From positions 10,089-74,088 of the forward strand of contig DATDYQ010000104.1 in NCBI GenBank assembly GCA_035288965.1: a stretch of DNA of 64,000 nt, in the 5' to 3' direction. Position 1 is the first letter of the stretch. Each line of letters begins with the position of its first letter. The notes beneath the pieces were generated by a model that made no database searches, had not been told where the DNA came from, and saw nothing but the letters and a program-made list of their open reading frames with translations. Positions 2,383 to 22,393 of this stretch are shown one piece after another. The DNA comes from Candidatus Nanoarchaeia archaeon (GTDB lineage Archaea > Nanobdellota > Nanobdellia > SCGC-AAA011-G17 > JAGVZF01). The translations under genes were made by a program, and so were the position numbers.

Positions 2383-3726
2383 ATGTCCTCAACTAAACAA
2401 TTGTTAAGAAAAATGAAGGTAAGTCTTGTTTTCCCTAGAATGAAATACCAAACTGGAGATCCTCCCCTAGGTATGGCTTTATTAGCAGGTAATTTAAGAA
2501 AAAATGGATTTGGAGTAGAAATAATAGATACAACTTTTCATCAATCTCTAGATTATGTTAAAGAAAGATTAACCTCGTTTAATCCAGACTGGGTTGCTAT
2601 TTATTCAGACACAATGATGTATAATGATTGTATTAAAATTTCTGAAATGGCAAAAGAAATGGGTAAAAAAGTTATTCTAGGTGGTCCACATCCTACTTTA
2701 AAACCAGAAACTCTAATTGATCATGGAGATTATCTAGTACAGGGAGAGGCAGAAGTTACAATAATAGATGTAATCAATGGAAAATTTAATGGTACAAAGA
2801 TAGTAAAGGGAGTTCCTGCAGATATAGAAACTTTGCCAATGGCAACATATGATTTACTAGAAATGAAGGAATATATTAAGAGATGGCATTTGCTAGATAG
2901 CATTAATCCTGATCTTCATGGCACTAGTATGTTTTCGGCTCGTGGTTGTTCTTTTAGATGCACATTTTGTCAACCAGTTTTAGATAAACTCTTTGGTAGA
3001 TTATTCAGAACAAGAAGTGTTGATAGTATAATTCAAGAACTAAAATATCTAAAAGAAAATGTTGGTATCAAAGCATTTTTCTTCCAAGATGATACATTTA
3101 CATTAAAAAAGATATGGATACGTGAATTTTGTAAAAGAATGATAGATGAAAAACTCGACTTATTGTGGGGTTGTAATTCCCGTATTGATTTAATTGATAA
3201 GGAAATAATGCAAACAATGTACAATGCTGGTCTAAGAGTCATGCACATGGGTCTTGAATCTGGAAGTCAAAGAGTTTTAGATGAAATATATCATAAAGAT
3301 ATCAAATTAGAAGGAATTCCTGAAAAAATAGCTTTGGCAGAAAAAATTGGCATTCATTGTTTATGCTTCTTTATGCTAGGTGCTCCAGGTGAAACAAGAG
3401 AAGAAATCGAAAAAACAATAAAATTTGCTGCCTCTCTTGATGCTACAGAAATAACCGCCACAATTGCAACTCCATTGCCTGGAACTTATCTATATGATGC
3501 AATAAAAGACAAATATAAAATTACTACAGATTTCGATAATTTTGATTATTATAAAAACAGCGCTTTCGAAAATCCTGATGTAAATTTCAAAGAGCTTAAA
3601 TGGTTACAGAAAAAATTATTATTTAAATTTTATACAAATCCAAAAAGGTGGGGTTATATTGGTAAGCATCTCACCCATCCAAGTGGATATGGAAAAATGG
3701 TAAAGAAAATTGCTAGATTCCTATAA
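2383..3726 (+). CDS. B12-binding (class B) radical SAM enzyme
   Basis: N-terminal cobalamin-binding-like domain, then CSFRCTFC (CxxxCxxC) and 'LGLESGS'. Confidence 0.8.
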   Translation: MSSTKQLLRKMKVSLVFPRMKYQTGDPPLGMALLAGNLRKNGFGVEIIDTTFHQSLDYVKERLTSFNPDWVAIYSDTMMYNDCIKISEMAKEMGKKVILGGPHPTLKPETLIDHGDYLVQGEAEVTIIDVINGKFNGTKIVKGVPADIETLPMATYDLLEMKEYIKRWHLLDSINPDLHGTSMFSARGCSFRCTFCQPVLDKLFGRLFRTRSVDSIIQELKYLKENVGIKAFFFQDDTFTLKKIWIREFCKRMIDEKLDLLWGCNSRIDLIDKEIMQTMYNAGLRVMHMGLESGSQRVLDEIYHKDIKLEGIPEKIALAEKIGIHCLCFFMLGAPGETREEIEKTIKFAASLDATEITATIATPLPGTYLYDAIKDKYKITTDFDNFDYYKNSAFENPDVNFKELKWLQKKLLFKFYTNPKRWGYIGKHLTHPSGYGKMVKKIARFL

Positions 3727-5279: not shown

Positions 5280-6539
5280 CTACTCATCTTTTATCTTAGT
5301 TGTTTTTATTATTATATCAACAAGCCAGTGTATTTTTACACTTTCTATCTTAAATCCGTGTCTCTCTATATCTTCTAAAAATTTTTTCTTTGAGAATTTC
5401 TCATCATGTGTATCTTTCCACATATCACCTACACTTCTGGTCCATAACCACCAAAACATATTAAATAAGGTATTTTCATTTGGGACAGATATAACCAATG
5501 TTCCATCTTTTCTTAATACCCTATTGATATTGTTTAAAGCTAAATCTCTATCTTCTACATGCTCTAAAACTTCCATTGCTGTTATTGCATCAAAGCTATT
5601 TGGTTTAAATGGTATATCTGTTATACTTCCTCGTTTAAAATTAAATCCTTTGCAATCCTTAACATCCATTCCAATTCCATGACCTAAAAATCTAATAAAA
5701 CTCCCATCTTTCATTGAATTACAAGGCTTTCCGCATCCTATATCCAATAAATCCTTTTTATCAGGTAATAATCTTCTAACTTTTCTATATCTTGCATAAT
5801 GATAGCTTTCTCTTAATCTATTAAACATCGGATTAAATAATTTTTTTCTTATTTTATATAAATACAGATCTCCAAGTTGCGTTACATATTCCATATTTTG
5901 CTTCATTCCAAGTTTACTTTTTCCATCAGTCCTATTCTTAAACATATAGGGAATTTCGATTGCTTTGTTATAATTTCCTTTGGCCAATATTTCCAAGCCA
6001 ATCTTATAGCCTCTAGGAACCAATCTTGTTTCTTCTATAACCTCTCTTTTAAAGAAAAAAAATCCAGACATAGGATCTTTAATGTTTGTAACAGGTTTAG
6101 CTAAAATTGTGGCAATCCTTGATGTTAATCTTCTTTGTTCAGGCCAATTAGTTACTCCTCCTCCTTCTATTAGTCTACTTCCTATTGTAATCTCCGCCTC
6201 ATCATTTAATATCGGTTTAACCATATCAAAAATCTTTTCAGCAGGATGACTTAGATCAGCATCCATAAAACCTATAATCTCTCCCTTAGAAATATCAATC
6301 CCATCCAAAACAGCAGATGCTAATCCTTTCTTATCTTTTCTGCATATTGCATTAATGTTATATTTCTTATCTTTCTTTATTTTATTTACAATATCAAATG
6401 TTCCATCTCTGCTATTATCATCAATTATAACAACCTCAAGTTTAAGCTTGTTTTTTTTAGAAACTAAAAATATATCATCTAATAATCTTCCAATATTATC
6501 ACTCTCATTTAAGGTAGGTATAATCAAAGATATATTCAT
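5280..6539 (-). CDS. Fusion protein with an N-terminal GT2 (dolichyl-phosphate sugar synthase-like) domain and a C-terminal class I SAM methyltransferase domain.
   Basis: N-terminus IIPTLNESDNIGRLL...VIIDDNSRDGT...DADLSHP (DPM1-like). C-terminus LLDIGCGKP...VLEHVED...LRKDGTLVISVPN (MTase motifs I-III). Confidence 0.75.
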   Translation of the reverse strand: MNISLIIPTLNESDNIGRLLDDIFLVSKKNKLKLEVVIIDDNSRDGTFDIVNKIKKDKKYNINAICRKDKKGLASAVLDGIDISKGEIIGFMDADLSHPAEKIFDMVKPILNDEAEITIGSRLIEGGGVTNWPEQRRLTSRIATILAKPVTNIKDPMSGFFFFKREVIEETRLVPRGYKIGLEILAKGNYNKAIEIPYMFKNRTDGKSKLGMKQNMEYVTQLGDLYLYKIRKKLFNPMFNRLRESYHYARYRKVRRLLPDKKDLLDIGCGKPCNSMKDGSFIRFLGHGIGMDVKDCKGFNFKRGSITDIPFKPNSFDAITAMEVLEHVEDRDLALNNINRVLRKDGTLVISVPNENTLFNMFWWLWTRSVGDMWKDTHDEKFSKKKFLEDIERHGFKIESVKIHWLVDIIIKTTKIKDE

Positions 6540-6634: not shown

Positions 6635-7177
6635 ATGCATAAAATGCGTTTAAAATGCTTAAATTTGGGTAGTGGGAAGAGTTATAAGAAAAGTAACGAA
6701 AAAGAAGAATGGGTAAACATTGATATTAATCCTGATTGGCATCCAGATATTTTACATGATTTAAGCAAATTTCCCTATCCATTTAAAGATAACACTTTTA
6801 ATTTGGTATTCGCAGATAATATCTTAGAACATTTTGACGGCTTACAACTAAAAAAAGTGCTTATTGAAATAGGAAGAATATTAAAAGAAGACGGAAAATT
6901 AAAAGCTATTGTCCCGCATTTTTCTAATGCTTCAGCTTACCAAATAAATCATAAAATGTTTTTCCAATCAAATTTTTTTCATGAAAGGAATATTTCAAAT
7001 GTTAAAGTATTAAGTGTTAGGTTAATGCTAACTCAAAATAAATTTCTTAGTTTTCTAAATTATATCGCAAATGTTAACCCATTTGTCTGGGAAAGATTTT
7101 TCTGCTATTATTATCCAATCCAAATGATTCATTTTGAATTAAAGATTATTAAAGATAAAGATAACAAGATAAGATAA
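6635..7177 (+). CDS. SAM-dependent methyltransferase (type 11-like)
   Basis: LNLGSGKSY, VFADNILEHF and EDGKLKAIVP motifs. Confidence 0.55.
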   Translation: MHKMRLKCLNLGSGKSYKKSNEKEEWVNIDINPDWHPDILHDLSKFPYPFKDNTFNLVFADNILEHFDGLQLKKVLIEIGRILKEDGKLKAIVPHFSNASAYQINHKMFFQSNFFHERNISNVKVLSVRLMLTQNKFLSFLNYIANVNPFVWERFFCYYYPIQMIHFELKIIKDKDNKIR

Positions 7178-7252: not shown

Positions 7253-8017
7253 ATGGAAACCTTATCTCTAATCATTCCTGCATATAATGAAGAACATAGA
7301 ATAGGAAAAACACTAGATTATTATTCATCTTATCTTTCTTCAAGGTTAAAAGATTTTGAAATTATCATAGTTTTAAATGGTTGCAAAGATAATACCTTAA
7401 GTGTTGTTTTAAATTATCAAAAAAAATATCCTAAAATAATTAAATATCTTAATTTTACTGATCCTATAGGAAAAGGCCCTGCAGTTATTGAAGGTTTTAA
7501 AGCAGCGAATAAGGAATTTATTGGTTTTGTTGATGCGGATATGTCAACACCGCCAGAAGCCTTCTATGATCTTGTTTTAAAGATGAATGGTTATGATGGT
7601 ATATTGGCCTCAAGATGGGTTAAAGGAGCTACAATCCCAATAAAGCAAAAAATTTCGCGTAGAATAGCTTCAAGGTCTTTTAACATTTTGGTAAGAATAT
7701 TATTTAACTTAAATGTAAATGATACTCAATGTGGTTGTAAGTTATTCAAAAAAGATGCAATCAAATCTATTGTTAATAATATCGGCAAAACAAAATGGGC
7801 TTTTGATATAGATGTTTTATATAAATTAAATAAAAAAGGTTATAAAGTGACCGAAATTCCAACATATTGGAGTGATGCAAAAGACTCTCATTTAAATGTC
7901 GCAAAAACAAGTATAGAGATGTTTTTGTCAATAATAAGACTAAGGTTAATTTACTCAAATCTTGAAGTAATAGTTAAATCATACAATAAAATCCATGATT
8001 TAATTTTAAAAAAATGA
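7253..8017 (+). CDS. GT2 glycosyltransferase (dolichyl-phosphate hexose synthase-like)
   Basis: LSLIIPAYNEEHRIGKTLD, VLNGCKDNT and VDADMSTPPE. Confidence 0.75.
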   Translation: METLSLIIPAYNEEHRIGKTLDYYSSYLSSRLKDFEIIIVLNGCKDNTLSVVLNYQKKYPKIIKYLNFTDPIGKGPAVIEGFKAANKEFIGFVDADMSTPPEAFYDLVLKMNGYDGILASRWVKGATIPIKQKISRRIASRSFNILVRILFNLNVNDTQCGCKLFKKDAIKSIVNNIGKTKWAFDIDVLYKLNKKGYKVTEIPTYWSDAKDSHLNVAKTSIEMFLSIIRLRLIYSNLEVIVKSYNKIHDLILKK

Positions 8018-9060
8018 AAATATTAACAATATTATTGCCTGGAATAGGAAATACCTTATTATTTACCCCAACATTAAGATCATTAAAGAAACATTTTCCC
8101 AATTCGGAAATCACAGCTTTGGTAATGTATAAAGGCTCACAAGAGATATTGGAAGGAAATCCATATGTTGATAAAATAATATTTTATCCATTCATGAAAA
8201 GGGGGCACATTAAATCACTATTTTTTGTGCTAAAACAAAGATTTCAAAACTATGATATATCCATTTTAGCTTATCCTGCCAATAGATTTCAATATTCTCT
8301 TATTGGATTTTTAATAGGGGCAAAAACTAAGATAACTCATTTATATGATCATAATAAATTATTCTCTGCAAGTTTCTTTTATTCTAAAAAACTTCCCTTG
8401 GATAAAAATTTACATGAAGTAGAAGAAAATTTAAACTTGTTAAAACTATTAAATATAAATGCTCTAGAAGAAGATAAGTCAATTTTTCTAAAGTTAGATA
8501 AAGAACATGAAAATTTTACATCAGATTTTATAAAAACGAATAAACTAAAGGGGAAAAAATTAGTTGGTATTCATGCTGGCTCTTCTGTTTTATCTGGAAT
8601 GATAAACAAAAGATGGCCAAAGGAAAGATTTATTTCGTTAATAGACAAACTATCAAATAAAAATACCATCTGCTTATTATTTGGTGGAAATGACGAAGCT
8701 GATTTAAAAGAATGGATATATAAAAACACAAAAAATAAACCTATATTGGTTAATACTCCTTCAGTAAAACATTCTGCATCTTTAATTAAGAAATGTAACC
8801 TGTTTATTTCAAATGATACTGCATTAATGCACATAGCAGGAGCATTAAATACCCCAACAATAATTCTTGTTGGCCCTGTTGCGAGGAAGACATTACCTCA
8901 GGGAGATATTCACACCGCAATATTTAAAAATCTACCCTGTCAGCCTTGTTACAGAATCGGGGACACAATGAAATGTGTCTTAAATATAAATTATAAATGT
9001 CTTAAAGATATAACAGTAGATGAGGTTTACAATATAGCATGGAAGAAATTAAGGGTATAA
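8014..9060 (+). CDS. GT9 family glycosyltransferase (heptosyltransferase-like)
   Basis: MKILTILLPGIGNTLLFTPTLRSLKKHFPNSEITALV at the N-terminus and SNDTALMHIAGALNTPTIILVGP at the C-terminus, the canonical GT9 signatures. Confidence 0.8.
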   Translation: MKILTILLPGIGNTLLFTPTLRSLKKHFPNSEITALVMYKGSQEILEGNPYVDKIIFYPFMKRGHIKSLFFVLKQRFQNYDISILAYPANRFQYSLIGFLIGAKTKITHLYDHNKLFSASFFYSKKLPLDKNLHEVEENLNLLKLLNINALEEDKSIFLKLDKEHENFTSDFIKTNKLKGKKLVGIHAGSSVLSGMINKRWPKERFISLIDKLSNKNTICLLFGGNDEADLKEWIYKNTKNKPILVNTPSVKHSASLIKKCNLFISNDTALMHIAGALNTPTIILVGPVARKTLPQGDIHTAIFKNLPCQPCYRIGDTMKCVLNINYKCLKDITVDEVYNIAWKKLRV

Positions 9061-9590
9061 CAACAATAGAAAAAGATTCTTTTTGTGTTCAACAGCAAAA
9101 TAGAATTATTAGGGACACAATAGAATTAATTAATAAAAAAGAGCTTAACATATTACAATTAGGTTGCAATTTTATTGAAAATTCATTATTACTAACAAAA
9201 AACGAAAAATATAAGATAATCTTAATCGATGATAAAAATGAAACAATTAATTCCGATAAATTAAACATTTCAAAATCATCATTAACAAAAACGAACTTTG
9301 AGGATAACACTTTTGATCTAACATTTAACATAGATATAATAAATAAAACCCAAGATCCATTAAATATAATTAAAGAAATGGTAAGGATAACAAGAAAATA
9401 TGGTATGATCTTATTAATATTTCCAGGTGATTTTGATATAAAAAAGGTAATAAAAGATATAAACATTAATTTAATAGATGTAAAAATTCCAAATTTAGAT
9501 GCAAAGCTAGCTGAATATGGGAACTTCAAAACTTCAAAAAATCCCTTAAGTAAAAGTGGGAAAAATTATTTAATAATGTTCAAGGTTTAG
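9039..9590 (+). CDS. Hypothetical protein with a degenerate Rossmann/methyltransferase-like fold
   Basis: ILQLGCN, FDLTF and RKYGMILLIFPGD. Weak. Confidence 0.35.
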   Translation: MEEIKGITTIEKDSFCVQQQNRIIRDTIELINKKELNILQLGCNFIENSLLLTKNEKYKIILIDDKNETINSDKLNISKSSLTKTNFEDNTFDLTFNIDIINKTQDPLNIIKEMVRITRKYGMILLIFPGDFDIKKVIKDININLIDVKIPNLDAKLAEYGNFKTSKNPLSKSGKNYLIMFKV

Positions 9591-11094
9591 GGAATTCATA
9601 AATTACTGCTAATGCTTGTTTTTGTTCCTGATCTGCGAAATATGCCTGCACAGGTTTTAATCCATGTTTCTCAGGATATTCAAAATAAGCCTGTCCGGAA
9701 TTCTCAAATATAGAAACAACAAAATATCTTGGTTTATATTTATTAATTTCATTTTCTTCATAAGCATATCTTGTCTCTCTTTCAGAATAATAAGTATTTT
9801 GCGGTATAGAATTGCTTATGACAATCTCTCCCTTATTTGAATTTTCTTTTATCCATATTCCAACCAATTTTATTGGTTCGTATGAGCTAACTTTATTTTT
9901 TATTAATGCATCACTATATCTTAATTGTTGGAAACCAACTATCAATATTATTAACACAACAAAACCAATTGCAATTCTCTTGTCAAATTTTTTAGTATAA
10001 TCAGATATCCACATTAATGCTTTCGCAGCTATAATAAACACTGCAGGAAAGACAACTATAAGATACCTATCTTCTCCTCGCCCGCTTGTATTTATAGCAA
10101 CATATGTTAATAATATTAAAGGTATTAATATCCATAATAACAAAAATAAATCCTTTTTCAATTCAATGTTTTTATCTTTTATCATTAAATCAAAGCCCAA
10201 AATAAGATTAATCAATAAATATAATAATCCTAATAAAAATGTGATAAGTAAAACTATTTGAAGATAAGTTGGAAACATTTTTAGATAAACATTCCAAGCA
10301 GAATAAACAGCTTTTGTTTCAGGATTTGCAATGCTTGCTTGTACCGCTGCCAATCTAGGTATCGGGGCTCCTAACGTAGCCATAGAATAAAAGATATAAG
10401 GCAACAATAATATTAATATTATTATCGCTGCTATCCATACTTTTCTATTCTTCAAGAATTTAAATTTATCTGTTATCAATAGATATATCAACATCACTAA
10501 TCCAATAAATCCAACAGCATAATAACTCAAAAATCCTATTAAAATAGATAATCCGGAAAATAAAAGGTATTTAAGATTTATTTCTTTCACATAACCCTTC
10601 CAAAAACAATAAACGGCAACTGTAACAAAAGCTAATGTTGGTGCTTCTGACATGAATCTTAAAGAATAAAATAAATGTAGATAAAAAACAGATAAAAATG
10701 CTGTTGCAATAATCCCGATTTTTTTATCAAAAATTTCTTTTCCTAAAAGATATGTAAAAATAACTGCCACTATTGAAAATAATGTTTCAATAAGTCTAAT
10801 AAAAAATTCAGAAGCTCCTATCTTAAATAATAATCCCCAAAATAAGGGTAATAAAGGTTCTCTATATGGAAACCATCCTGTATTTGGTGTATTAAAAGCA
10901 TAATGTTTTGCCTGCAACATCATCTCAGCTTCATCCCACCATAATGGTTGATGGGAAGCAACAAATAAATAATAAAGTCTTATTATAATCCCAATGCTAA
11001 TAACAACCAATGCTATTATGTTTAATTTATCACTAAAAAATCCTTTTTTCTGTTCTTTAGTTTCAATTTTAATCTCTGTAGGTTTAACTTCCAT
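9580..11094 (-). CDS. Membrane GT-C glycosyltransferase (ArnT/PMT-like, PF13231-type)
   Basis: Multi-TM protein with a WWDEAE loop, then 'REPLLPLFWGLLFKIG...' typical of the GT39/GT83 family. Confidence 0.55.
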   Translation of the reverse strand: MEVKPTEIKIETKEQKKGFFSDKLNIIALVVISIGIIIRLYYLFVASHQPLWWDEAEMMLQAKHYAFNTPNTGWFPYREPLLPLFWGLLFKIGASEFFIRLIETLFSIVAVIFTYLLGKEIFDKKIGIIATAFLSVFYLHLFYSLRFMSEAPTLAFVTVAVYCFWKGYVKEINLKYLLFSGLSILIGFLSYYAVGFIGLVMLIYLLITDKFKFLKNRKVWIAAIIILILLLPYIFYSMATLGAPIPRLAAVQASIANPETKAVYSAWNVYLKMFPTYLQIVLLITFLLGLLYLLINLILGFDLMIKDKNIELKKDLFLLLWILIPLILLTYVAINTSGRGEDRYLIVVFPAVFIIAAKALMWISDYTKKFDKRIAIGFVVLIILIVGFQQLRYSDALIKNKVSSYEPIKLVGIWIKENSNKGEIVISNSIPQNTYYSERETRYAYEENEINKYKPRYFVVSIFENSGQAYFEYPEKHGLKPVQAYFADQEQKQALAVIYEFPKP

Positions 11095-11163
11095 TTTTAT
11101 TTCTTTAATATTCTAACTTAAATATGTTTTTATTAATCTTAAATATAGAGAATTAAGAATATA

Positions 11164-12174
11164 TTATTTTTTATCTAAACTTGCTAACAATTCATCTAAA
11201 GTTAATGTTGCTGTTCCAACTTTGCCAATAACTACTGCTGCAGCATGGTTTGCAACAGACATAGAATCTTTAACTCCTAATTCAGAAGCTAATCCCAAGG
11301 AAAATATAGCTAATGCAGTATCTCCCGCTCCAGAAAGATCATATACTGGAACACTTTTTCCTTTAGAATGATGATAAAGCCCTTCTTGCCCAAAAAATTT
11401 CATTCCTTCTTTACCACAAGTAATAACGACCCCACCAGTCCAATATTTAGATATAAGCTTTCTACCAACATGATTTATATGCTTATTTTTGTCTAGTCCT
11501 GTTATCTCTCTTGCCTCTTTAGAATTTAACATTAAAAAATCCATATCATAATAAATACTAGCATTTATTGGTTTAGGTTCAACAATAAATAATTTCTTTC
11601 TTCTTTTAGCTTCCATTCTCAAAAATTTTACCAATGTTTTAGTAATAATCCCTTTACCATAATCTGATATTAAATATACATCTGCATCTAAATCAGATTC
11701 CCTAAAATGATTTATTAAAATATTAGTTTGATCTCTATTCAATCTTGTGTCCATTTCTTCATCGAATCTAGCAATTAAATCTTCATCATCTGCTATAAGC
11801 CTATTTTTTGTTGTGGTTATTCTATCCCTTAATGAAATGATTCTAGATTTAATTCCATTATAAGAAACTAAATCATAAACCACTTTCCCTGACTTATCAT
11901 TTCCCATAACACCATACAAATAAGCTGTAGCCCCAAGACTTGCAATATTACTTGCCGTATTCCCCGCACCCCCCAAAACATCAGAATGTCCTGTAACTTT
12001 TACTAGATTGGTTGCGCGTCTCTCTGGGTTTAATCTCTCTATCTCTCCTAAAATATAATGATCTAGCATTACATCTCCAACAATTAAAATTTTCCTTTCA
12101 GGGAATGTTCTGACAACTTCTTTTACTCTTTCTATGTTCATATTAATCACTTTGTACTTTCTACTCTTTCCCAA
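11164..12174 (-). CDS. hldA: D-glycero-beta-D-manno-heptose-7-phosphate kinase (HldE domain I / RfaE-I-like, PfkB family)
   Basis: VGDVMLDHY, GGAGNTASNIASLGA, DLSGAGDT and GKVGT match the HldE kinase domain motif-for-motif. There is no adenylyltransferase domain. Confidence 0.8.
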   Translation of the reverse strand: MGKSRKYKVINMNIERVKEVVRTFPERKILIVGDVMLDHYILGEIERLNPERRATNLVKVTGHSDVLGGAGNTASNIASLGATAYLYGVMGNDKSGKVVYDLVSYNGIKSRIISLRDRITTTKNRLIADDEDLIARFDEEMDTRLNRDQTNILINHFRESDLDADVYLISDYGKGIITKTLVKFLRMEAKRRKKLFIVEPKPINASIYYDMDFLMLNSKEAREITGLDKNKHINHVGRKLISKYWTGGVVITCGKEGMKFFGQEGLYHHSKGKSVPVYDLSGAGDTALAIFSLGLASELGVKDSMSVANHAAAVVIGKVGTATLTLDELLASLDKK

Positions 12175-14036
12175 GCATCATTATAATGTTTTCTTATTAA
12201 CCTAGTATCGTAATAAACACTAATCCACATATATAATCTAGCAAAGAATAGCCTTAGTGTCCACCAAAATTCTCTCAAATCTTGAGGGTAAGATAAGGCC
12301 CAAAATGTTCCAATAAATACTTCATTAAAAAAAGATTTAACTCTTGGAAAATCAGGAGCGTGTTTTGTTAATGTTTCATGTGCCTTCGCAGTTCTTTTTC
12401 TTTGTTTAAACCATTCATTAAAATTATCAGGGTTCTTAACAAACACTTTAGCCTCTTTTACATATTTAATTTTATATCCTCTTTTCCAAAAATAATAAGG
12501 GATTATACTATCTTCAGCTACATCTAATGGAATCTTGTTGATTATATTGTTTCTGAAAGCAAATAAATACCCAGAACATTCTAAAAATTTTCCTTGCTCA
12601 GATAATTTTTTCCTGATTTTATGAGCTCCTGCATCAGCCAATAAATGGCTCCAATATCCAAATATATCCTCTTTACTATTCGATGAAACAATTCTTCCCG
12701 TTACACATCCTGTTTTAAGGTCAAAAAAAGATCTAGCAATTTCATTAATTGAGTTTTCTCCCAGAACAACATCACCATCTGTAAAAATCAAGATATCTCC
12801 TTTTAATTCTTTAAATAATAAATTTATTGCATAACTTTTTCCTGTTCCAGGATCTTTAAAGTATTTTATATTCTGTTTTTTATTTAGTTTATTAAATAAT
12901 GTTTTAGCTTCTTCATCTGGACTTGCTATAATAATTTCATAGTCGTAATCTATTTGTTGTTTTATTATAGAATCAATAGCCTTTGGCAAATTAGGTTCTT
13001 TAAAAGAAGTAACAATAATTGATAATTTATTTTTTATTAACCTATTCGCAGCATTAACAATATTATCTACATTCATCTTATTCATACTTTGGCAGTCTGG
13101 TTTATAACAACATAAACAATTAGAATTTGGCGTTAATCTTATACCTTGTCCATACAAATCTAATTCGGCAGCAGAAGTTGGACCAACTAAAACGACAACT
13201 TTTCTTTTCAGAGCTACAGCTAAATGTAATCCTAAGCTGTCGCTGGTTACAAAAACATTACAAATAGCTATTAATGCTGGAAATTCAAAAAGATCATTGC
13301 CACATCCCGTATTTATTATAGGGACTTTGCTTAAAGAAATAATATTGTCATTTCTTTCTATCTCATCCTGCCCGCCAAACAGCAATATTTTATATTTATA
13401 ATTTTTATACAACATTTCAGCAAGTTTTGCTGTCTTTTCTATGCTTAATTTCTTTGATGGCCAAACTCCCCCCGATCCTGTATTAACCCCTATAACAATA
13501 TCATCCTCTCTTATATTATATCTTCTCTTAAAATCATTTAAAAATTTTCCTTGTTCCCTATTTAATTTTAAATTCATAAAAGTCTTATCGTAATCCACTC
13601 CAACCATATCGCTAATAATTTGTTGGTACGTTTTCTTATTTTTCTTTTTGAGAATATCATTTTGAGGTTTCTTGCCTAATTTGCTCATATCATACCATTC
13701 TTTTGCGCTCTCAGATGGGACAACTTTAAGATTTTTATCTAAATAGTTTCCAATGATTTTTCCAGTTTTAATCTTAGTAGCCAATGCACAAGCTTCAAAA
13801 TCTTCATCCAGATTAATAACAATATCAAAGTACATTCCTTCTAAATATCTTAAATTAATCTTGCTGTAATAAACTGCCTCATCAACAAATTTATTGTCTT
13901 TTATTAATGAATAAGCATTCTTCTTGGTAAGCCAATAAATCTCTGTGTATCTATATTTTTCTTTTAATGCTGGAAGTATTGTGGTTGTCCTTACAACATC
14001 TCCCATAGCTCCTAATTTAATTATAAGAATTTTCAT
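12147..14036 (-). CDS. Fusion of an N-terminal GT9 heptosyltransferase-like domain and a C-terminal GT2 domain
   Basis: MKILIIKLGAMGDVVRTTTILPALKEKY plus SDSLGLHLAVALKRKVVVLVGP (GT9). Then IIVTSFKEPN...DYEIIIASPDEE...FTDGDV (GT2). Confidence 0.7.
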   Translation of the reverse strand: MKILIIKLGAMGDVVRTTTILPALKEKYRYTEIYWLTKKNAYSLIKDNKFVDEAVYYSKINLRYLEGMYFDIVINLDEDFEACALATKIKTGKIIGNYLDKNLKVVPSESAKEWYDMSKLGKKPQNDILKKKNKKTYQQIISDMVGVDYDKTFMNLKLNREQGKFLNDFKRRYNIREDDIVIGVNTGSGGVWPSKKLSIEKTAKLAEMLYKNYKYKILLFGGQDEIERNDNIISLSKVPIINTGCGNDLFEFPALIAICNVFVTSDSLGLHLAVALKRKVVVLVGPTSAAELDLYGQGIRLTPNSNCLCCYKPDCQSMNKMNVDNIVNAANRLIKNKLSIIVTSFKEPNLPKAIDSIIKQQIDYDYEIIIASPDEEAKTLFNKLNKKQNIKYFKDPGTGKSYAINLLFKELKGDILIFTDGDVVLGENSINEIARSFFDLKTGCVTGRIVSSNSKEDIFGYWSHLLADAGAHKIRKKLSEQGKFLECSGYLFAFRNNIINKIPLDVAEDSIIPYYFWKRGYKIKYVKEAKVFVKNPDNFNEWFKQRKRTAKAHETLTKHAPDFPRVKSFFNEVFIGTFWALSYPQDLREFWWTLRLFFARLYMWISVYYDTRLIRKHYNDAWERVESTK

Positions 14037-14067: not shown

Positions 14068-15192
14068 TTACTCTAAATATATATTCATAACCCTTTTAGC
14101 TATTTTATCCCAATCATATTGCTTAGATTTATTAACATTATTCTTGCCTATTTTCTCTCTCAATTTCTTGTTATCAACTAACTTTATCACATTACCTTTT
14201 AAACAACTTATATCTCCATAATCACAAAAAAATCCATTTTCCTTATCTTTCATCTCATAAGGAATACCATTCACAGGACTTGCAACTACCGATAATCCAC
14301 AAGCAAAAGCTTCAAATAAAGTTAAAGGCAATCCCTCTCTAAAGCTAGGCATAACATAAACTTCACTTGCTTGATACATTTTAACAACTTCTTTTCTATC
14401 TCTTATCGCTCCCAAAATCTTTATCCTTTTGTCAGCTAATTTTTTAACTTCTTCTAACATTCCTTCATCAGGTCCAACAATAACAAAATCTAGATCTTTT
14501 CTTTCATTTAATAAGTCATTAGCCATTAAAACAAACTTATCTACACCTTTTGTTTTATTCAATCTTCCAAAAAATAATATCAATTTTCCTTTAATTCCAT
14601 ATTTCTTCTTGAAATCATTATTTTTTATTTTCTTAAAAAATTCCTTGCCCATTCCATTTGGTATAACTTCAATCTTTCCTTTTCCGCCGTATTTTTCAAT
14701 GAATTGTATTTCCCAAGGTGTTATCGCAATTATCTTATCAGTCCATCTAAAACTTAATCTCATAAAGGTATTATAAACAATTCCCAGTAATATTTTAGCA
14801 AAAAAACTTCTGTTTTCCGTAGTCCATGGGCAATGCGTAGTATGAATTAACTTTATTCCTCTAAATTTCGCGTTTAAAGCTCCGAAAAATTGATGAGCAT
14901 GTCCTGCAACATGTGTATGGATAATATCAAACTTTTCTTTATTGAGTTTAAATAAAACGCTTGGCCAAAAAGTAGAGAAATTAGCAACTTTAAACCAAGA
15001 ATAACATCTATGAAGATGAATTCCATCAATTATCTCTTCTTTAACCTTTAATCTTTCTTTCTTATCGGAATCAACAGTATAAACATGAACTTCATGTCCT
15101 TGCTTAATATATCTTTGAGCTAATTCATAAATTACTTGTGCTGGTCCATCCACAGCAGGAAAAAAATATGAGCATAAATAAGCTATTTTCAT
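14068..15192 (-). CDS. GT4 (group 1) glycosyltransferase
   Basis: GT-B architecture with 'GRLNKTKGVDKFV' and an E-x7-E-like region 'PSFREGLPLTLFEAFACGL'. Confidence 0.75.
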   Translation of the reverse strand: MKIAYLCSYFFPAVDGPAQVIYELAQRYIKQGHEVHVYTVDSDKKERLKVKEEIIDGIHLHRCYSWFKVANFSTFWPSVLFKLNKEKFDIIHTHVAGHAHQFFGALNAKFRGIKLIHTTHCPWTTENRSFFAKILLGIVYNTFMRLSFRWTDKIIAITPWEIQFIEKYGGKGKIEVIPNGMGKEFFKKIKNNDFKKKYGIKGKLILFFGRLNKTKGVDKFVLMANDLLNERKDLDFVIVGPDEGMLEEVKKLADKRIKILGAIRDRKEVVKMYQASEVYVMPSFREGLPLTLFEAFACGLSVVASPVNGIPYEMKDKENGFFCDYGDISCLKGNVIKLVDNKKLREKIGKNNVNKSKQYDWDKIAKRVMNIYLE

Positions 15193-15193
15193 T

Positions 15194-16066
15194 TCAATAC
15201 TTCCTGAAAGCTTCTTTCACTCCATCCCGACTTCCTTTGTAAACTGATTTTATTAAATTGAATTGTCTTCTAAAAATAAATAATATAGCTTGAACTTGAA
15301 TTATCACAATAAAATGTATTAATAAAAATAATAAAAACCTGAATAATTTCAAATGTTTCTTTAATAATATTATCCTATTTCGATATAAATAATAAACAAC
15401 AAATTTATTCTTCTTTCCACCCGAGCTTCCGTAAACTTTATGATAAACTTTGGCATTCGGATTGATATAAGCCTTAAATCCCCTTTCATACGCCTTAAAA
15501 ATTAAATCTTCTGTCTCACAATACATAAAGAAATTCTCGTCATACATTCCAACTTCCTTTATGATTTTATTACTTATTAACAAAGCACATGCGTCCAAAT
15601 ATTCATTCTTCTTTAGTTCAGCTGGAGCATAATAATCTTTTATCGGTTTAGCAATCCCTGTTATAAAATCTAATTTTCCACCTAATGAATCTAAATCCTT
15701 TGAATAATAATTAAATATCGCACTTCCCACAAACCCGATTCTTTCATCTTTAATTGCAACATTAACTAACTCTTTTAATAAAAATCTATCGACAACTGCA
15801 TCGCTGTTTAATAATAAGTAATAATCATAGTTTTTATTCTCTCTTATCGCTAAATTAACAGCTCCTGTAATTCCTGAATTTACTTTATTTTTCATTAATT
15901 TAACATTTTTAATCTTCTTTAGTTTTTCTATGCTTTTACTAGCATTATCTACAATTAATATTTCATAATTTTTATATTCTAATCTTCTTATGCTCTCAAT
16001 TAATTCAATCGTATCATCTTCTGTATTATAATTTACAATTATTATCAAAACTTCAGGTTCTTTCAT
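15194..16066 (-). CDS. GT2 glycosyltransferase
   Basis: LIIIVNYNTEDDTIE, ILIVDNASK and LLLNSDAV. Confidence 0.7.
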   Translation of the reverse strand: MKEPEVLIIIVNYNTEDDTIELIESIRRLEYKNYEILIVDNASKSIEKLKKIKNVKLMKNKVNSGITGAVNLAIRENKNYDYYLLLNSDAVVDRFLLKELVNVAIKDERIGFVGSAIFNYYSKDLDSLGGKLDFITGIAKPIKDYYAPAELKKNEYLDACALLISNKIIKEVGMYDENFFMYCETEDLIFKAYERGFKAYINPNAKVYHKVYGSSGGKKNKFVVYYLYRNRIILLKKHLKLFRFLLFLLIHFIVIIQVQAILFIFRRQFNLIKSVYKGSRDGVKEAFRKY

Positions 16067-16100: not shown

Positions 16101-16970
16101 TTATCCGATTGCAATTAATACTGTTCCAAAAATCATAATTAAAGCAGCTACAACATTCTTTATTATTCCTTTTTCTTTAAAGAAAATATATCCATAAATT
16201 ATGCTAAAAACAATGCTTAATCTTTTTACAGATATCATATAAGCATTTAATGTTAAACTCTGCGCTTTGAAAGAAGCTAAGCTCATTAAAGCACTCAAGG
16301 TTCCTATTATTAATAATATCCATATGTTAGTTTTACTAGCTGTCCTTATTGGATTTTCTTTAAATCTTATCATTATATATAATGTAGATACAATGCAGAT
16401 TGAAATTATAGCCAATCCAGAAACAGCTAATGGGTTTTTTGTTTGATTTATTAAAATTTTATATAATGGGGTTACAACAGCATATAAAAAAGCAGCTATC
16501 AACATGTAAATTGATCCCTTATCTCTAAATAAACTTCTAATCGGTTGAAATGAAATAAATCCCCCTTCTGTTTTTATTATATAAGATCCAAGAAATATTA
16601 AAAAAATTCCGCTAGCTCCCAGTAAGGATGGTATTTCATTCAAAAAAATCCATGATATTATTGTTAAAAAAACAGGTGTAAAACTCAAAAAAGGAACGGT
16701 TATAGCTAATCCGGATATCTTAATCGCCTTTACATATAATATTATAGCTATCATCTCTAAAATTCCTGTAATAAAAAGCAAGAAAATTGATAATAAGTTT
16801 AAATTAGGAATCTTTACAATAAACAAGGTAATTATAATGATCGGTAAAGAAAAAAACCATACTGCCCATGAAACGATATAATCATTATATTTATTTAAAG
16901 CTAGTTTCTGAACTAGATTATTCGTAGCGGTACTTAGTGCTGCAAATAAGGATAGTATTAGCCATAGCAT
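16101..16970 (-). CDS. EamA/DMT-superfamily transporter
   Basis: About 10 TM segments in two EamA-like halves. Confidence 0.6.
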   Translation of the reverse strand: MLWLILSLFAALSTATNNLVQKLALNKYNDYIVSWAVWFFSLPIIIITLFIVKIPNLNLLSIFLLFITGILEMIAIILYVKAIKISGLAITVPFLSFTPVFLTIISWIFLNEIPSLLGASGIFLIFLGSYIIKTEGGFISFQPIRSLFRDKGSIYMLIAAFLYAVVTPLYKILINQTKNPLAVSGLAIISICIVSTLYIMIRFKENPIRTASKTNIWILLIIGTLSALMSLASFKAQSLTLNAYMISVKRLSIVFSIIYGYIFFKEKGIIKNVVAALIMIFGTVLIAIG

Positions 16971-17054: not shown

Positions 17055-17726
17055 CTAAATGATTAAACCAAATTTTCCCAAAACATCTTCTAGCGTATTT
17101 CTTCTATAATCAAATTGTACAGAATTTATTCCTAATTTTCTGGCCCCTTTTACATATTCTTTATTATCATCAATAAAAAGAGTTTCTTCTGGTTTGCTTC
17201 CCAATCTTTGTAATGCATTTTTATATATTATAGGATCTGGTTTTGCACATCTATCTTCAGAAGAAAATGTCAAATAATCTGAATTAAATCCATTAAAGAA
17301 TTCAACATCTTTATAATAATTAAGAATAGATTCTGTTATGTTCGATAATATTCCTACTTTTATCCCACCTTTAGCTATTTTTTTTGCTATTTCTACATTG
17401 TTTCCTATAACTAATCTTTCTCTACCTTGAATATAAAATGGCTTACTAAATAAATCCACACTATCACCTCTTAATAATATATTATCAGAAACTCCATTTC
17501 TCCTTCTTTGTTCGCCAAATGCTCTTTCTAGCCTGCTAACAGCTTCTTCATAAGTAATTCGACCCCTATTTAGATCTACAAGAACTGTATCTTTCAAAAC
17601 TTTAGCCATTTCTTGTTGTGGAACATTATACAAAGAGCTAAGATGATTTAGTATTAAATCATATCCTTCAATAACTAACACATTAGCCATATCAAAGAGC
17701 ACTGTTGTTATTTTTGTTTTAAACAT
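17055..17726 (-). CDS. HAD-superfamily hydrolase (phosphatase-like)
   Basis: N-terminal 'VLFDMANVLV' and C-terminal 'LFIDDNKEYVKGARKLG' HAD motifs. Confidence 0.5.
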   Translation of the reverse strand: MFKTKITTVLFDMANVLVIEGYDLILNHLSSLYNVPQQEMAKVLKDTVLVDLNRGRITYEEAVSRLERAFGEQRRRNGVSDNILLRGDSVDLFSKPFYIQGRERLVIGNNVEIAKKIAKGGIKVGILSNITESILNYYKDVEFFNGFNSDYLTFSSEDRCAKPDPIIYKNALQRLGSKPEETLFIDDNKEYVKGARKLGINSVQFDYRRNTLEDVLGKFGLII

Positions 17727-17805
17727 ATTATTTTTTAATAAGAAAGATTTATAAAAGTTGTTAAATCGAAGGAAGGTTTAAATATTTTTCTCTATTTTCA
17801 GTAAA

Positions 17806-18870
17806 GTGGTACATGCAAAATTTGATGAAACAGAAAAAGAACAAGAATATATAAACACAGTAAAAAGGCTACTTAATCCGCATCGCCCTTATTTAAAAAT
17901 AGGTAAAGTAAAACTTGGAGCTGGAAGAACAAATGATAATCTTCTTGTTTATGATACTGATAGTAAACCAGTTTGTGTTGTAAGAAAATCAAGACTAGAT
18001 AGAACTAATATGGCTCATTTTTATTTTCTTCAAATACAATCATTAGAAAGAGAAAAATTTCTTCTTGAATATATTGGCAAACATGCTCCAAAGGTTCCTA
18101 TCCCAAGACTTATTGCAGCAGATCAAGATCCAGAAGATGGACTAGATTATCTTGTAGTATCCCATATTAGTGGAATAAATTTTGCTGATATTGCAGGATC
18201 TTTAACTCCAAATCAATATAATAATTATATGAGAAATTTAGGAGAAACCATCGCTCCTGTAAGTAATTTAACATTCGGATCATTCGGTATTATCGGACCT
18301 GATGGAATTATAATTAATCCATTCCAAAGATGGAGTGATAGAATTGCCTTCTCAATATATGGAAAATTAAAAGATCCTGCTTCAACCGAATATTTTACAC
18401 ATGAATTATTATTTGAAAAAATTCCTGAATTTATTGAAAAACATAGAGAAGCTCTAGATAAAAATAGAAGACCTACAGCTGTTTTATATGATCTGCATTC
18501 AAAAAATTTTAATGTAGATCCAACAACAGAAAAAATCACTGGTTTCTTTGATATCGGTTTAGGACTTATTGCTAATAGAACATTGGAATTCGTTCCCATT
18601 GAACTTAATACAGTAAACTTTGGAAAAACAGAACGTCCGGCTGCATTAGAAGCATTTTTTGAGGGGTATGGACTATCTCTAAAAGATAGAGCAGATTATG
18701 AAGCTGCAAAACCAGTCTATGCACTAAATCATTCACTGGGGGCGGTTTTAGCCTATCATAATAATCCTGTAGATGATCTAAGAAGAGATCTTTGGAGTAG
18801 AGAAGTCTTCAAACCAAGAGTTGAAGAAATAGTAGAAAAAGGAATAGTAAATATGGTAAGATGGTTCTGA
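17806..18870 (+). CDS. APH-fold phosphotransferase (aminoglycoside/choline-kinase-like). It may be a sugar kinase.
   Basis: 'LYDLHSKNFNVD' (HxDxxxxN-like) and 'FFDIGLG'. Confidence 0.5.
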   Translation: MVHAKFDETEKEQEYINTVKRLLNPHRPYLKIGKVKLGAGRTNDNLLVYDTDSKPVCVVRKSRLDRTNMAHFYFLQIQSLEREKFLLEYIGKHAPKVPIPRLIAADQDPEDGLDYLVVSHISGINFADIAGSLTPNQYNNYMRNLGETIAPVSNLTFGSFGIIGPDGIIINPFQRWSDRIAFSIYGKLKDPASTEYFTHELLFEKIPEFIEKHREALDKNRRPTAVLYDLHSKNFNVDPTTEKITGFFDIGLGLIANRTLEFVPIELNTVNFGKTERPAALEAFFEGYGLSLKDRADYEAAKPVYALNHSLGAVLAYHNNPVDDLRRDLWSREVFKPRVEEIVEKGIVNMVRWF

Positions 18871-19748
18871 ACAAATTACACGGCATTATAGTACCCTTAT
18901 CGACACCAATTAAAGAGGATCAATCAATAGATTTTCCTGCAACTAAAAATCTAGTGGATAAATTAATTGAAAATGGTGTTGATGGACTTTTTCCCTTAAG
19001 TGGTACTGGAGAGTTTCCGATGCTTTCTTTAAGAGAATCTAAACAGTTTATAAATTTTGTAATGAGATCTTCTAGTGGAAGAGTTCCAGTTTACCCTGGA
19101 GCTTTTAGAGACAATTTAGGTGACACTTTAGAATTGGCTTTTGCTGCAGAAATATCTGGTGCTGAAGGAATTGTTTTAATGCCACCTTATTTTTATGGTC
19201 GTATTAAGAGTGAAGATATCGTAGACCAAGTTAGAAGAATAAAATGTAATATAAATTTACCTGTTATTTTTTATAATACAAATTCAAAATTAAGATTAGA
19301 TGAAGCTAGTATGCTTAGATTACATCAAGAAGGTTTAGTTATTGGAGCAAAAGAGGGAAGTAAAGATTTAGACTATCTAAAAAGATTAGCAGAATCTGGC
19401 ATGTCTGTTCTTCCAGGTAGCGATAAACTTCTTTATGCTGCATCTCAATTTGGTTGTGTGGGTGGTTTTCCTGGAAGTGCTAATGTATTAACGAAAGGGT
19501 TTGTAACCTTGTGGAAATTTATTCAAGAAGAAAAATTACAAGAAGCTGAGGCATTGCAATCTAGAATTAGTAGTGTTGTTGAAGTTATGTATAAAACAAA
19601 CCCCTATAGCGCCCAAACAGGTGTTAAGATTGGTTTAGAATATCTAGGTATCTGCCTTTCAAGAATGAAATATCCAATGCCTCAAGCAACTACAGAAGAA
19701 AAAAGAATTATTTTCGAAACATTAGATAAAAACAAGGATTTACTTTAA
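18861..19748 (+). CDS. DapA/NanA-family class I aldolase (N-acetylneuraminate-lyase / DHDPS-like)
   Basis: 'GIIVPLSTP...VDGLFPLSGTGEFPMLSLRE' at the N-terminus matches the family pattern. Confidence 0.65.
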   Translation: MVLNKLHGIIVPLSTPIKEDQSIDFPATKNLVDKLIENGVDGLFPLSGTGEFPMLSLRESKQFINFVMRSSSGRVPVYPGAFRDNLGDTLELAFAAEISGAEGIVLMPPYFYGRIKSEDIVDQVRRIKCNINLPVIFYNTNSKLRLDEASMLRLHQEGLVIGAKEGSKDLDYLKRLAESGMSVLPGSDKLLYAASQFGCVGGFPGSANVLTKGFVTLWKFIQEEKLQEAEALQSRISSVVEVMYKTNPYSAQTGVKIGLEYLGICLSRMKYPMPQATTEEKRIIFETLDKNKDLL

Positions 19749-21548: not shown

Positions 21549-21585
21549 TTTTATAAGGTTTTCTATATTCTATAAAATATATATT

Positions 21586-21849
21586 ATGGGGGTTAACAAA
21601 ATGGTAGAAAAGCAAGCTAAAACATTAGATGAAAGATTACAATTTGAAGAAGGAGATTTACACTTAGAAGGTAATTTTGCGATTAGCCTTGGTTTAGGGA
21701 AGTCTCTTGCAGATGATGAAATAAAGAAAATTGTAATTGGTAAGTATAATGGCGTATTAAAATATGTCGATAAAAAAGGACAATTAAAAATCGTAGGCAA
21801 TGGGTTATACAGCATAATAGGTTTAGGAAAATATGCCGGCGCAATTTAA
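21586..21849 (+). CDS. Hypothetical small protein
   Basis: 87-aa ORF with no recognised motif. Confidence 0.35.
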   Translation: MGVNKMVEKQAKTLDERLQFEEGDLHLEGNFAISLGLGKSLADDEIKKIVIGKYNGVLKYVDKKGQLKIVGNGLYSIIGLGKYAGAI

Positions 21850-21910
21850 TTTATTAATCTCAAGATCTATAAATAATATAATAAATAGAAAAAAGTAGAT
21901 AAACAATAAA

Positions 21911-22393
21911 ATGCCAATTGATGATGCATTAAATGATTTGCCAAGATCAAAAGAAGCGTCAAAACAAATAGTTGCACCTCCAGAACCAGAGCAAGCAAAT
22001 AAAGTAATTTTCACTGATGCCGTACAACAATTTAGAAATAGTTTACAATATTATCTTCCTTATCAATTGGCAACAATTATAAAAAGTAAAGGACTAAATG
22101 TAACCTGGGATAACGGCAATATAGTTTCTTTTTTAGATAATGAAATTTTTTTAAAATTTACGTCTATTGGAATTGCAGCCCATAAAAGATTTTGGTTCGG
22201 TCATGATTGGATAGGTTATTTATATTTTAATGATCCTAATAAATGGAAATTGGAAGTTTATGGAAGAAAAAATATAGATAGATTAAAAAATCTTGCTGAC
22301 GAAATATCAAAACAATATTCAAAAGATATAGAGCTTATATTAGAATTAGAATATCCAAAATCAAAGTCAGTAGAATATGCTGGTTTTATCTAA
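21911..22393 (+). CDS. Hypothetical protein whose N-terminal 'MPIDDALNDLPRS' motif is shared with the ORF at 55209
   Basis: ORF. The N-terminal paralogy is seen directly. Confidence 0.45.
   Translation: MPIDDALNDLPRSKEASKQIVAPPEPEQANKVIFTDAVQQFRNSLQYYLPYQLATIIKSKGLNVTWDNGNIVSFLDNEIFLKFTSIGIAAHKRFWFGHDWIGYLYFNDPNKWKLEVYGRKNIDRLKNLADEISKQYSKDIELILELEYPKSKSVEYAGFI

Follow-up and report, generated by a model that had tools for sequence, protein, structure and literature searches.

In bacteria, the heptose kinases HldA and HldE, the heptosyltransferases WaaC and WaaF and the GDP-heptose route are textbook knowledge. Here we describe a related gene module in a 64,000-nucleotide stretch of DNA, hereafter the window, from contig DATDYQ010000104.1 (assembly GCA_035288965.1) of a Candidatus Nanoarchaeia archaeon. 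The module encodes a PfkB-family kinase resembling HldA and domain I of HldE, a two-domain GT9-GT2 glycosyltransferase (the fusion), a standalone GT9 glycosyltransferase and further glycosylation enzymes. An earlier note on the same DNA had called it a heptose module, and every open reading frame (ORF) named there is present where it was placed. Starting from direct observations of gene content, domain identities, fold, operon structure and of conservation and co-localisation across DPANN archaea, we read the region as probably the heptose-linked arm of an island in which a DPANN archaeon (Woesearchaeota, class Nanoarchaeia) encodes the assembly of its surface/N-glycans.

Heptose has precedents in Archaea. 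Nucleoside diphosphate (NDP)-heptose biosynthetic enzymes are functional in archaea (Tang et al., Science 2024, as presented in PMC11461863 and PMC11573728). In these commentaries, isomerase, kinase, phosphatase and nucleotidyltransferase are reported outside Bacteria, together with multi-domain fusions, and the reason for manno-heptose synthesis in archaea is stated to be unknown. Relative to the enzymes presented there, the DPANN genes differ in standing beside conserved GT9(-GT2) genes in glycosylation islands, which suggests a candidate role. The N-glycan of Thermoplasma acidophilum contains a heptose, D-glycero-D-galacto-heptose, for which no link to GT9 is described (PMC11407970, PMC12448462). 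Heptose in an archaeon, which the earlier note had found noteworthy, is therefore not new in itself. The novelty lies in variant and context and not in a new kind of system: a GT9-GT2 fusion shared throughout a lineage is linked to heptose activation genes in the glycosylation islands of archaea. Our literature search returned nothing linking heptose genes or GT9 enzymes to surface glycosylation in DPANN archaea or Woesearchaeota.

The kinase is closer to HldA/HldE than to any other PfkB family. Among NCBIfam models it matched TIGR02198 (rfaE_dom_I) with 267.3 bits (E 1.6e-79), the runner-up being ribokinase with 72.9 bits, and its best PDB match is HldA of B. cenocepacia (4E84, E 2.8e-36). 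The earlier assignment to HldE domain I is thereby upheld, and a grouping with ribokinase or another PfkB family, named at the time as evidence to the contrary, was not seen. The protein is 35-41% identical over its full length to thousands of HldA/HldE homologues. Among the matches listed, all relatives named by their source are annotated HldA/HldE, and many add PF01467 adenylyltransferase or SIS domains. Alignment to 4E84 revealed LGGAGN, NSKE and GAGDT, which satisfy the PfkB motif set GG, NxxE and GAGD(T). When residue conservation was assessed statistically from 118 bacterial HldA/HldE sequences, the kinase was found to keep every invariant column and 70 of the 91 columns conserved at 90% or more. 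It is predicted to phosphorylate heptose 7-phosphate at O-1, the function of its own subclade being not fully secured. In PfkB fold, motifs and linkage of its gene to GT9 it resembles B. cenocepacia HldA and domain I of E. coli HldE; it differs in being a stand-alone archaeal protein encoded in an AglB-type N-glycosylation island and not in a lipopolysaccharide core locus.

The longest ORF of the kinase, starting at TTG 12174 (11164-12174), gives the 336 aa noted earlier. A GTG at 12150 overlaps the stop codon of the fusion gene as GTGA and yields 328 aa, a start also called in P0001, while an ATG at 12141 lies 5 nt after that stop, yields 325 aa as in HLC56860.1 and aligns with the start of the homologue in locus L013 (L-numbers label loci fetched for comparison). 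Given these positions and the other gene calls, the ORF exists as noted but the kinase has 325-328 aa, not 336; GTG 12150 is the likely start and ATG 12141 the alternative. Its translation is coupled to that of the fusion.

Of the other copies of the kinase, the closest is annotated as Candidatus Nanoarchaeia; HLC56860.1 is a 325-aa copy, and assembly GCA_964549185.1 also carries the locus. The DPANN homologue in L013 is 46% identical. An exhaustive search found only three other 50%-identity clusters nearer than 43% to the window kinase (43-48%). Together with L013, L014 and L015 these clusters and the window kinase form a subclade with a neighbour-joining (NJ) bootstrap of 78, the only part of the NJ tree that is resolved. 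Deeper nodes have support below 10, so we draw no conclusion about which way or how often the gene moved between Bacteria and DPANN. A narrow, recent horizontal transfer of the kinase was considered and dropped once the L013 homologue and the three clusters had been found. In a metagenome scan with the subclade alignment, the matches listed were generic HldA/HldE (31-37% identity), with no subclade members among them. The subclade kinase gene lies directly beside a GT9 or GT9-GT2 gene in the window and in L014, L015, L094 and L096, and three genes away in L013.

In the fusion, PF01075 covers residues 65-300 (55.2 bits, cutoff 22), and PF00535 (58 bits) or PF13641 (55.6 bits) covers residues 338-549, in agreement with the GT9-GT2 architecture of 629 aa first proposed. 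A database search returned hundreds of full-length homologues of about 628 aa with 50-63% identity and the same two domains. Their named sources are nearly all Woese-, Pace- or Nanoarchaeota, one listed match coming from Paceibacterota, a bacterial group; homologues also occur on DPANN contigs of 829-857 kb. Thirty homologues aligned over their full length had a mean column identity of 64%. Their invariant residues include G12-D13, W192/K195 and D266/H271 in the GT9 domain, and D420xD422, E508-D509 and Q545xxR548 in the GT2 domain. An AlphaFold model reached a predicted local distance difference test (pLDDT) score of 88.6 and a predicted template modelling (pTM) score of 0.87. Compared by Foldseek, its N-terminal GT-B domain matched the Veillonella parvula GT9 protein 3TOV (E 2.8e-15, target-normalised template modelling (TM) score 0.75-0.79), WaaF 1PSW (TM 0.70) and WaaC 2GT1/2H1H (TM 0.59-0.69). 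Its C-terminal GT-A domain matched the glycosyltransferase domains of hyaluronan and cellulose synthases (HAS, BcsA), TarP and PcManGT, a membrane mannosyltransferase of Pyrobaculum. By domain matches and predicted fold, the fusion is thus a putative bifunctional enzyme, an N-terminal GT-B GT9 joined to a C-terminal GT-A GT2. It shares with WaaC, WaaF and 3TOV the GT-B fold, PF01075, the equivalent of Asp13 and the C-terminal D...H motif. It differs from them in the attached GT2 and in an identity to WaaC/WaaF of 15-20%. To our knowledge, archaea have no lipid A/Kdo (3-deoxy-D-manno-octulosonic acid) acceptor.

The link between these transferases and heptose activation emerged from a comparison of 80 loci, obtained by scanning one genome per GTDB species. 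Gene presence was scored with local profiles within 10 kb. Apart from two contigs in methanogen-labelled metagenome-assembled genomes (MAGs), all loci are from DPANN. They comprise 35 full fusions, 6 loci with split GT2 and GT9 genes, 38 GT2-only loci and 1 GT9 fragment at a contig end. HldA and/or HldC were found at 11 full-fusion loci, 4 split loci and 2 GT2-only loci; HddA, the GHMP kinase of the GDP-heptose route, was absent from both of the former classes and present at 10 GT2-only loci. Loci bearing a GT9 thus have HldA/HldC in 15 of 41 cases and HddA in none. Among loci with either route the ratio is 15:0 for GT9-bearing versus 2:10 for GT2-only loci (Fisher p = 7.8e-6). This pattern, GT9 with the ADP route and GT2 alone with the GDP route, is expected if the GT9 domain is truly an ADP-heptose-dependent transferase, and from it we predict ADP-heptose as the GT9 donor. 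HldD and HddC were left out of the counts, the jackhmmer profiles having drifted to generic SDR (short-chain dehydrogenase/reductase) epimerases and sugar-1-phosphate nucleotidyltransferases; HldD was confirmed with NCBIfam only in L020.

In 11 loci, L044 among them, a heptose gene immediately adjoins the fusion or its GT2 homologue, often overlapping it. The fusion is followed by HldA in L015, by bifunctional HldE in L038 and by HldC in L029 and L034, while GmhA precedes the GT2 in L067 and a GmhA-HddA-HddC triple fusion does so in L063. In L020 a set of five heptose genes follows downstream of the fusion, over a distance of some 4 kb, in the order fusion, agmatinase-like gene, GmhA, GmhB, HldD (ADP-heptose 6-epimerase), HldA and HldC, with NCBIfam scores of 196, 156, 263, 365 (above cutoff) and 176 bits for the five heptose enzymes. 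Where a GT2-only locus has HddA, it is usual for GmhA, GmhB and a nucleotidyltransferase to be close by as well. Relatives of the fusion's GT2 without a GT9 stand beside the genes of the GDP-D-glycero-alpha-D-manno-heptose route (GmhA, HddA, GmhB, HddC) known from bacterial S-layer glycans and capsules; the window differs in having no gene of that route and a kinase of PfkB and not GHMP type. A single-copy gene is expected within 10 kb of a given point of a genome of about 1 Mb in some 2% of cases. The observed 30-40% is thus a strong association, yet all glycan genes tend to cluster. The earlier suggestion of heptose chemistry accordingly gains from the fusion's homologues, which stand beside HldA, HldC, GmhA, GmhB and HldD far above chance, and is qualified by the kinase's own subclade, considered below.

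Several features of these loci deserve mention in their own right. In DPANN ADP-heptose clusters without SIS-type GmhA, a Cupin_2 domain of about 120 aa recurs (L083:9233-10585, L074:12438-13751, L092:14728-16059, L093:6764-7159, L084:11137-12648), either fused to the C-terminus of HldA, alone beside HldA or within a GmhB-cupin-HldC triple fusion. It resembles the C-terminal domain of mannose-6-phosphate isomerase and D-lyxose isomerase, and is a candidate non-orthologous sedoheptulose-7-phosphate isomerase. Unusual gene fusions beside homologues of the fusion's GT2 domain are the GmhA-HddA-HddC already mentioned (792 aa, L063:4405-6780), GmhA-HddA (532 aa, L062:5528-7123), RpiB-HldC-HldC (465 aa, L044:7620-9014) and HldC with a GSU2086/deoxyhypusine-synthase-like domain (511 aa, L047:2119-3651). 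Between the genes for GT9 and HldA, one for a small NUDIX hydrolase is repeatedly seen (L083:8810-9229, L093:5392-5802, L096:9557-9955), and a nucleoside 2-deoxyribosyltransferase-like protein (PF05014) recurs beside GT9 genes (L011:13879-14292, L094:7-411, L096:7985-8407); both might control or recycle nucleotide-sugars. On one Woesearchaeota contig (L011/L018, CAYJXL010000010.1) GT9 has expanded: five genes of the family, the fusion among them, lie inside 18 kb, and one of the five matches only faintly. The two methanogen-labelled contigs, L036 (JAQVTJ010000115.1, binned as Methanobacterium sp.) and L052 (CAZSMA010000028.1, uncultured Methanosarcinales), are short and carry a DPANN-type fusion or GT2 homologue of 48-61% identity. 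Most likely they are DPANN contigs mis-binned into host-like MAGs, a real transfer between host and symbiont being the alternative.

The module genes form two convergent, densely packed operons (Table 1). On the minus strand the EamA gene comes first and the PMT_2 gene last; on the plus strand the stop codon of the GT2 gene (7253-8017) and the start codon of the standalone GT9 gene overlap as ATGA. The fusion adjoins the kinase gene, as noted earlier, but the standalone GT9 does not flank it directly, the genes for a PMT_2 GT-C protein (9580-11094, minus strand) and a methyltransferase (9039-9590, plus strand) lying in between. The order GT2-GT9-methyltransferase-PMT_2 is repeated in L001, L002, L013 and L094, and that of GT4 and fusion is kept in L001, L008 and L013. 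In 24 of 32 full-length loci a PMT_2 homologue is no farther than 10 kb from the fusion; in L008, a locus without a kinase, the fusion sits between the GT4 gene and a PMT_2 gene directly downstream. Independent contigs sharing the window's end genes extend the map. Upstream lie STT3/AglB, a PF00953 phosphotransferase and a flippase, the oligosaccharyltransferase gene aglB being some 2-5 kb from the window; downstream lie PCNA, TFS, TrmB and CTP synthase. AglB and the fusion are at most 10 kb apart in 11 of the 32 full-length loci, and in L009/L010 the fusion is directly beside AglB, phosphotransferase and flippase. The archaeal glycan island suspected from the window alone is borne out by these neighbours. 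As in AglB-centred Agl clusters of other archaea, AglB, phosphotransferase, flippase, GT2/GT4 enzymes and methyltransferases are clustered, and Thermoplasma offers a heptose precedent. We know of no glycan structure from DPANN.

Table 1. Genes of the module and associated features in the window. Pfam scans covered all window ORFs of at least 110 aa and profile scans all six-frame ORFs of at least 40 aa; L001 is the sister locus.
Feature	Position	Strand	Evidence and conservation
GT2 + S-adenosylmethionine (SAM) methyltransferase fusion, AglJ/ArnC-like	5280-6539	-	PF00535 105 bits + PF08241; kept in L001, L002
Methyltransferase	6635-7177		
GT2, polyprenyl-phosphate sugar synthase type (ArnC/PgfS/AglJ/dolichyl-phosphate (Dol-P)-hexose transferase-like)	7253-8017	+	PF00535 89 bits; NCBIfam PgfS, ArnC PRK10714, DPhHxTase_Halo and AglJ matches
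Standalone GT9, 348 aa	8014-9060	+	PF01075 101.9 bits, E 4.5e-29; PDB 3TOV E 7e-23
SAM-dependent methyltransferase	9039-9590	+	PF08241 E 2.4e-7; 22-nt overlap with GT9 3' end; position kept in L001, L002, L013, L094
PMT_2/ArnT-type GT-C, 504 aa, membrane protein	9580-11094	-	PF13231 75.5 bits
HldA/HldE-domain-I-like PfkB kinase, 325-328 aa	11164-12150	-	PF00294 E 1.6e-28; TIGR02198 267 bits
GT9-GT2 putative bifunctional glycosyltransferase, 629 aa	12147-14036	-	PF01075 + PF00535/PF13641
GT4 glycosyltransferase, directly upstream of fusion	14068-15192	-	PF00534/PF13439; Agl16-like 101 bits
GT2, rhamnosyltransferase-like subfamily	15194-16066	-	PF00535 66 bits; TIGR01556 70.7 bits; kept in L001, L013
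EamA/DMT membrane protein, two repeats	16101-16970	-	PF00892 90 bits; kept in L001
S-layer-like protein, 784 aa	56705-59059	-	PF05124 S_layer_C E 1.3e-9

In the model that we favour, the kinase would feed a heptose-activation pathway whose remaining enzymes would be encoded elsewhere in the genome. Dephosphorylation and nucleotidylation by these enzymes would give an NDP-heptose, most likely ADP-heptose, for use at the cytoplasmic face. There the fusion's GT9 domain, perhaps together with the standalone GT9, would attach heptose to an oligosaccharide linked to dolichol. Neighbouring sugars would come from the GT2 domain of the fusion, the GT4 and the other GT2, and the methyltransferases would decorate them. 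The glycan would then be flipped and moved by AglB onto surface proteins such as the S-layer-like protein, a candidate acceptor whose tie to the module we infer. A second arm outside the cell may be of Arn/Gtr type, the ArnC-like polyprenyl-phosphate-sugar synthase GT2, the EamA protein (a presumed ArnE/F-like flippase of lipid-linked sugars, or a transporter) and the PMT_2 GT-C modifying the glycan. Bacterial Arn/Gtr systems likewise comprise an ArnC GT2, an EamA-like ArnE/F flippase and an ArnT GT-C; the likeness is one of domain families alone, and the three genes of the module are not contiguous. Substrates, order of steps and acceptor are thus predicted here, as is the presence of the missing pathway genes elsewhere in the genome. 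More tentatively, and with somewhat less than even confidence, the model may extend to a lineage-wide heptose-containing core of surface/N-glycans in Nanoarchaeia (Woese-/Pacearchaeota), built by a dedicated GT9-GT2. The ADP route would supply heptose wherever the enzyme has its GT9 domain, and the GDP route wherever just the GT2 part is left, GmhA apparently being replaced in some lineages by the cupin-type isomerase domain fused to HldA, GmhB or HldC.

Several results weigh against the favoured model. The earlier note had seen neither GmhA nor the adenylyltransferase domain in the window, and our searches agree. Pfam scans gave no SIS/GmhA, CTP_transf_like/HldC or GmhB-type HAD protein. Purpose-built hidden Markov models (HMMs) for HldC, GmhA, GmhB, HddA and the cupin isomerase, made from sequences retrieved during the analysis and run with filters off on all six-frame window ORFs, gave a best E of 0.18. 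Extending the search for homologues of gmhA, hldE domain II and gmhB that had been proposed to 10 kb on either side of the window left GmhA, GmhB, HldC, HldD, cupin isomerase and GDP-heptose genes likewise unfound. The same holds for the kinase's subclade: HldC, GmhB, GmhA or cupin partners are near subclade kinases in none of 5 informative contexts, versus 8 of 9 for canonical DPANN HldA (p = 0.003). The kinase stays below the trusted (equivalog) cutoff of TIGR02198, 345 bits, and the match once described as motif-for-motif holds at every invariant position but at only 70 of the 91 highly conserved ones; the L013 subclade kinase scores 244.9 bits, whereas the DPANN kinase of L020 passes with 365.4 bits. 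The subclade also shares changes at positions otherwise conserved at 96% or more (S50N, D200E/Q, T216M, P217L, V281E/L), and the window and L014 kinases have Arg-Arg instead of a conserved Ala-Pro.

On the transferase side, the standalone GT9 clearly belongs to its family (PF01075 gathering cutoff, 22 bits) but carries Asn13, in the motif PGIGNTLL, where WaaF, 3TOV and the fusion have the Asp of a GD pair. We take this Asp to be the equivalent of the catalytic Asp13 of WaaC, so that the canonical GT9 signatures first reported for both proteins stand for the fusion and not for its paralogue. Asn occupies this position in 28 of 119 homologues, mostly the nearest relatives, and is therefore a conserved feature of the clade and not a sequencing error. 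Furthermore, 23 of the 35 fusion loci have no heptose gene within reach, among them the locus of the complete AR20 genome (CP010426) and two others, on contigs longer than 800 kb. Lastly, we know of no biochemical or glycan-composition data for any DPANN archaeon.

From the empty contexts, the shared substitutions and the sub-cutoff score it follows that either the partner genes lie elsewhere in the subclade genomes or the substrate has shifted. In the latter case, the kinase would still serve the adjacent GT9-GT2 and PMT_2 but phosphorylate another sugar or sugar phosphate, without giving the canonical heptose 1,7-bisphosphate. The separation of the subclade in the NJ tree fits such a shift as well. 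Yet every invariant HldA residue is kept, the nearest relatives beyond the subclade are all HldA/HldE with no other PfkB family scoring close, and the gene remains tied to GT9 genes as for canonical HldA. Pathway genes are dispersed in other DPANN loci too, HldC lying 8 kb off in L027 and GmhB 10 kb off in L031. We thus consider a changed substrate unlikely, though the most serious of the alternatives. The same lack of pathway genes in window and flanks would be explained if the pathway were truly incomplete and heptose intermediates or nucleotide-heptose were scavenged from a host or partner, the kinase acting in salvage. DPANN metabolism is generally reduced, and an EamA/DMT gene, of a transporter family that could mediate uptake, stands first in its operon and is kept in the sister genome. 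However, HldA requires heptose 7-phosphate, and what it makes becomes usable by a GT9 only through GmhB and HldC; these enzymes would be called for even with salvage. We know of no precedent, and an EamA-type protein beside a GT2 and a GT-C is better read, by analogy with ArnE/F, as a flippase of lipid-linked sugars. Scavenging is therefore improbable in our view.

Slightly less probable again is that the GT9 domains are not heptosyltransferases, the fusion being a generic GT-B/GT-A enzyme for common nucleotide sugars that lies near heptose genes through the general clustering of glycan genes. The many fusion loci without a heptose gene and the low identity to WaaC/WaaF would agree with this, and GT9 membership reflects sequence and not a tested donor. 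A generic enzyme would leave unexplained the route-specific pairing of GT9-bearing and GT2-only loci, the immediate and often overlapping adjacency in 11 loci and the invariance of the GT9 catalytic Asp and C-terminal D-x-x-x-x-H motif. Bacterial contamination or a chimeric assembly, which would make the heptose genes bacterial, might be suspected from the bacterial origin of the kinase's nearest relatives beyond its small clade, but is effectively refuted. Many independent contigs, taken from different samples, show the same gene order, continuous with AglB, PCNA, TFS and S-layer genes, and fusion homologues sit on the long DPANN contigs mentioned above. In the sister locus, from a Woesearchaeota MAG, the kinase is 88% and the fusion 96% identical, in the same gene order. 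The guanine-plus-cytosine content is uniform across the module (27-30%), giving no sign of recent import. Taken with the archaeal flanking genes and the S-layer gene, these data lead us to dismiss contamination: the island is an archaeal (DPANN) surface-glycan island. Its heptose-linked arm remains the reading we prefer.

Should the lineage-wide extension of the model be correct, NDP-heptose synthesis would have its first physiological role in archaea. The 80 loci link heptose genes to GT9(-GT2) transferases, about a third of the full-length loci lying within 10 kb of AglB, and thereby offer a candidate purpose for archaeal NDP-heptose (PMC11573728). The model predicts heptose on DPANN surface glycoproteins and its installation by the GT9-GT2 enzyme. 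The fusion itself, a defined and highly conserved family with hundreds of members of about 628 aa and a confident model, lends itself to biochemistry and offers a marker for the biology of the DPANN cell surface. ADP-heptose acts as an agonist of innate immunity; any such relevance for environmental DPANN is speculative.

Some candidate pathway enzymes in the window were rejected. The HAD hydrolase at 17055-17726, thought earlier to be possibly GmhB-like, is ruled out as GmhB. It matches HAD-IA best (NCBIfam, glucose-1-phosphatase-like), its HAD-IIIA score of 23.6 bits is below the cutoff of 44.6, it scores 1.5 bits (E 4.1) on the DPANN GmhB profile, and it is absent from L001. The CTP_transf_3 domains at 19785-21548 and 26435-27826 belong with NeuB genes as CMP-ulosonic acid synthetases, and the NTP_transf_2/Polbeta proteins are minimal nucleotidyltransferases of toxin-antitoxin-like kind, paired with a HEPN domain; neither group was retained as heptose nucleotidyltransferases.

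The HAD gene is part of a block (17055-19748) with an APH-family kinase and a DHDPS/NanA-like gene. The whole block is missing from the otherwise collinear L001 and adjoins the NeuB-cytidylyltransferase fusion (19785-21548), with which the HAD more plausibly belongs; it is possibly an accessory ulosonic-acid branch. Nonulosonic-acid genes are abundant in the island (19785-30395, 35842-37455 and 2383-3726) and include two NeuB, of which one is joined to CTP_transf_3, a fusion of GT2 with CTP_transf_3 and two epimerase_2-like proteins. Unusual sugar modifications are suggested by three B12-binding radical SAM enzymes and one SPASM radical SAM enzyme in the same three stretches. An overlapping gene pair at 44030-44987 (HEPN and a minimal nucleotidyltransferase of Polbeta/NTP_transf_2 type) and a second Polbeta-type gene at 55774-56463 look like toxin-antitoxin modules. 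Near the S-layer gene, at 48693-53751 and 59323-63946, several large proteins, of 633, 854 and 500 aa, and a series of small ones had no Pfam match at E <= 0.001 and may be lineage-specific surface proteins. Between these genes, on the minus strand at 53757-53853, Rfam found a tRNA of 97 nt (47.8 bits) which is missing from the ARAGORN output, consistent with an archaeal tRNA that contains an intron.

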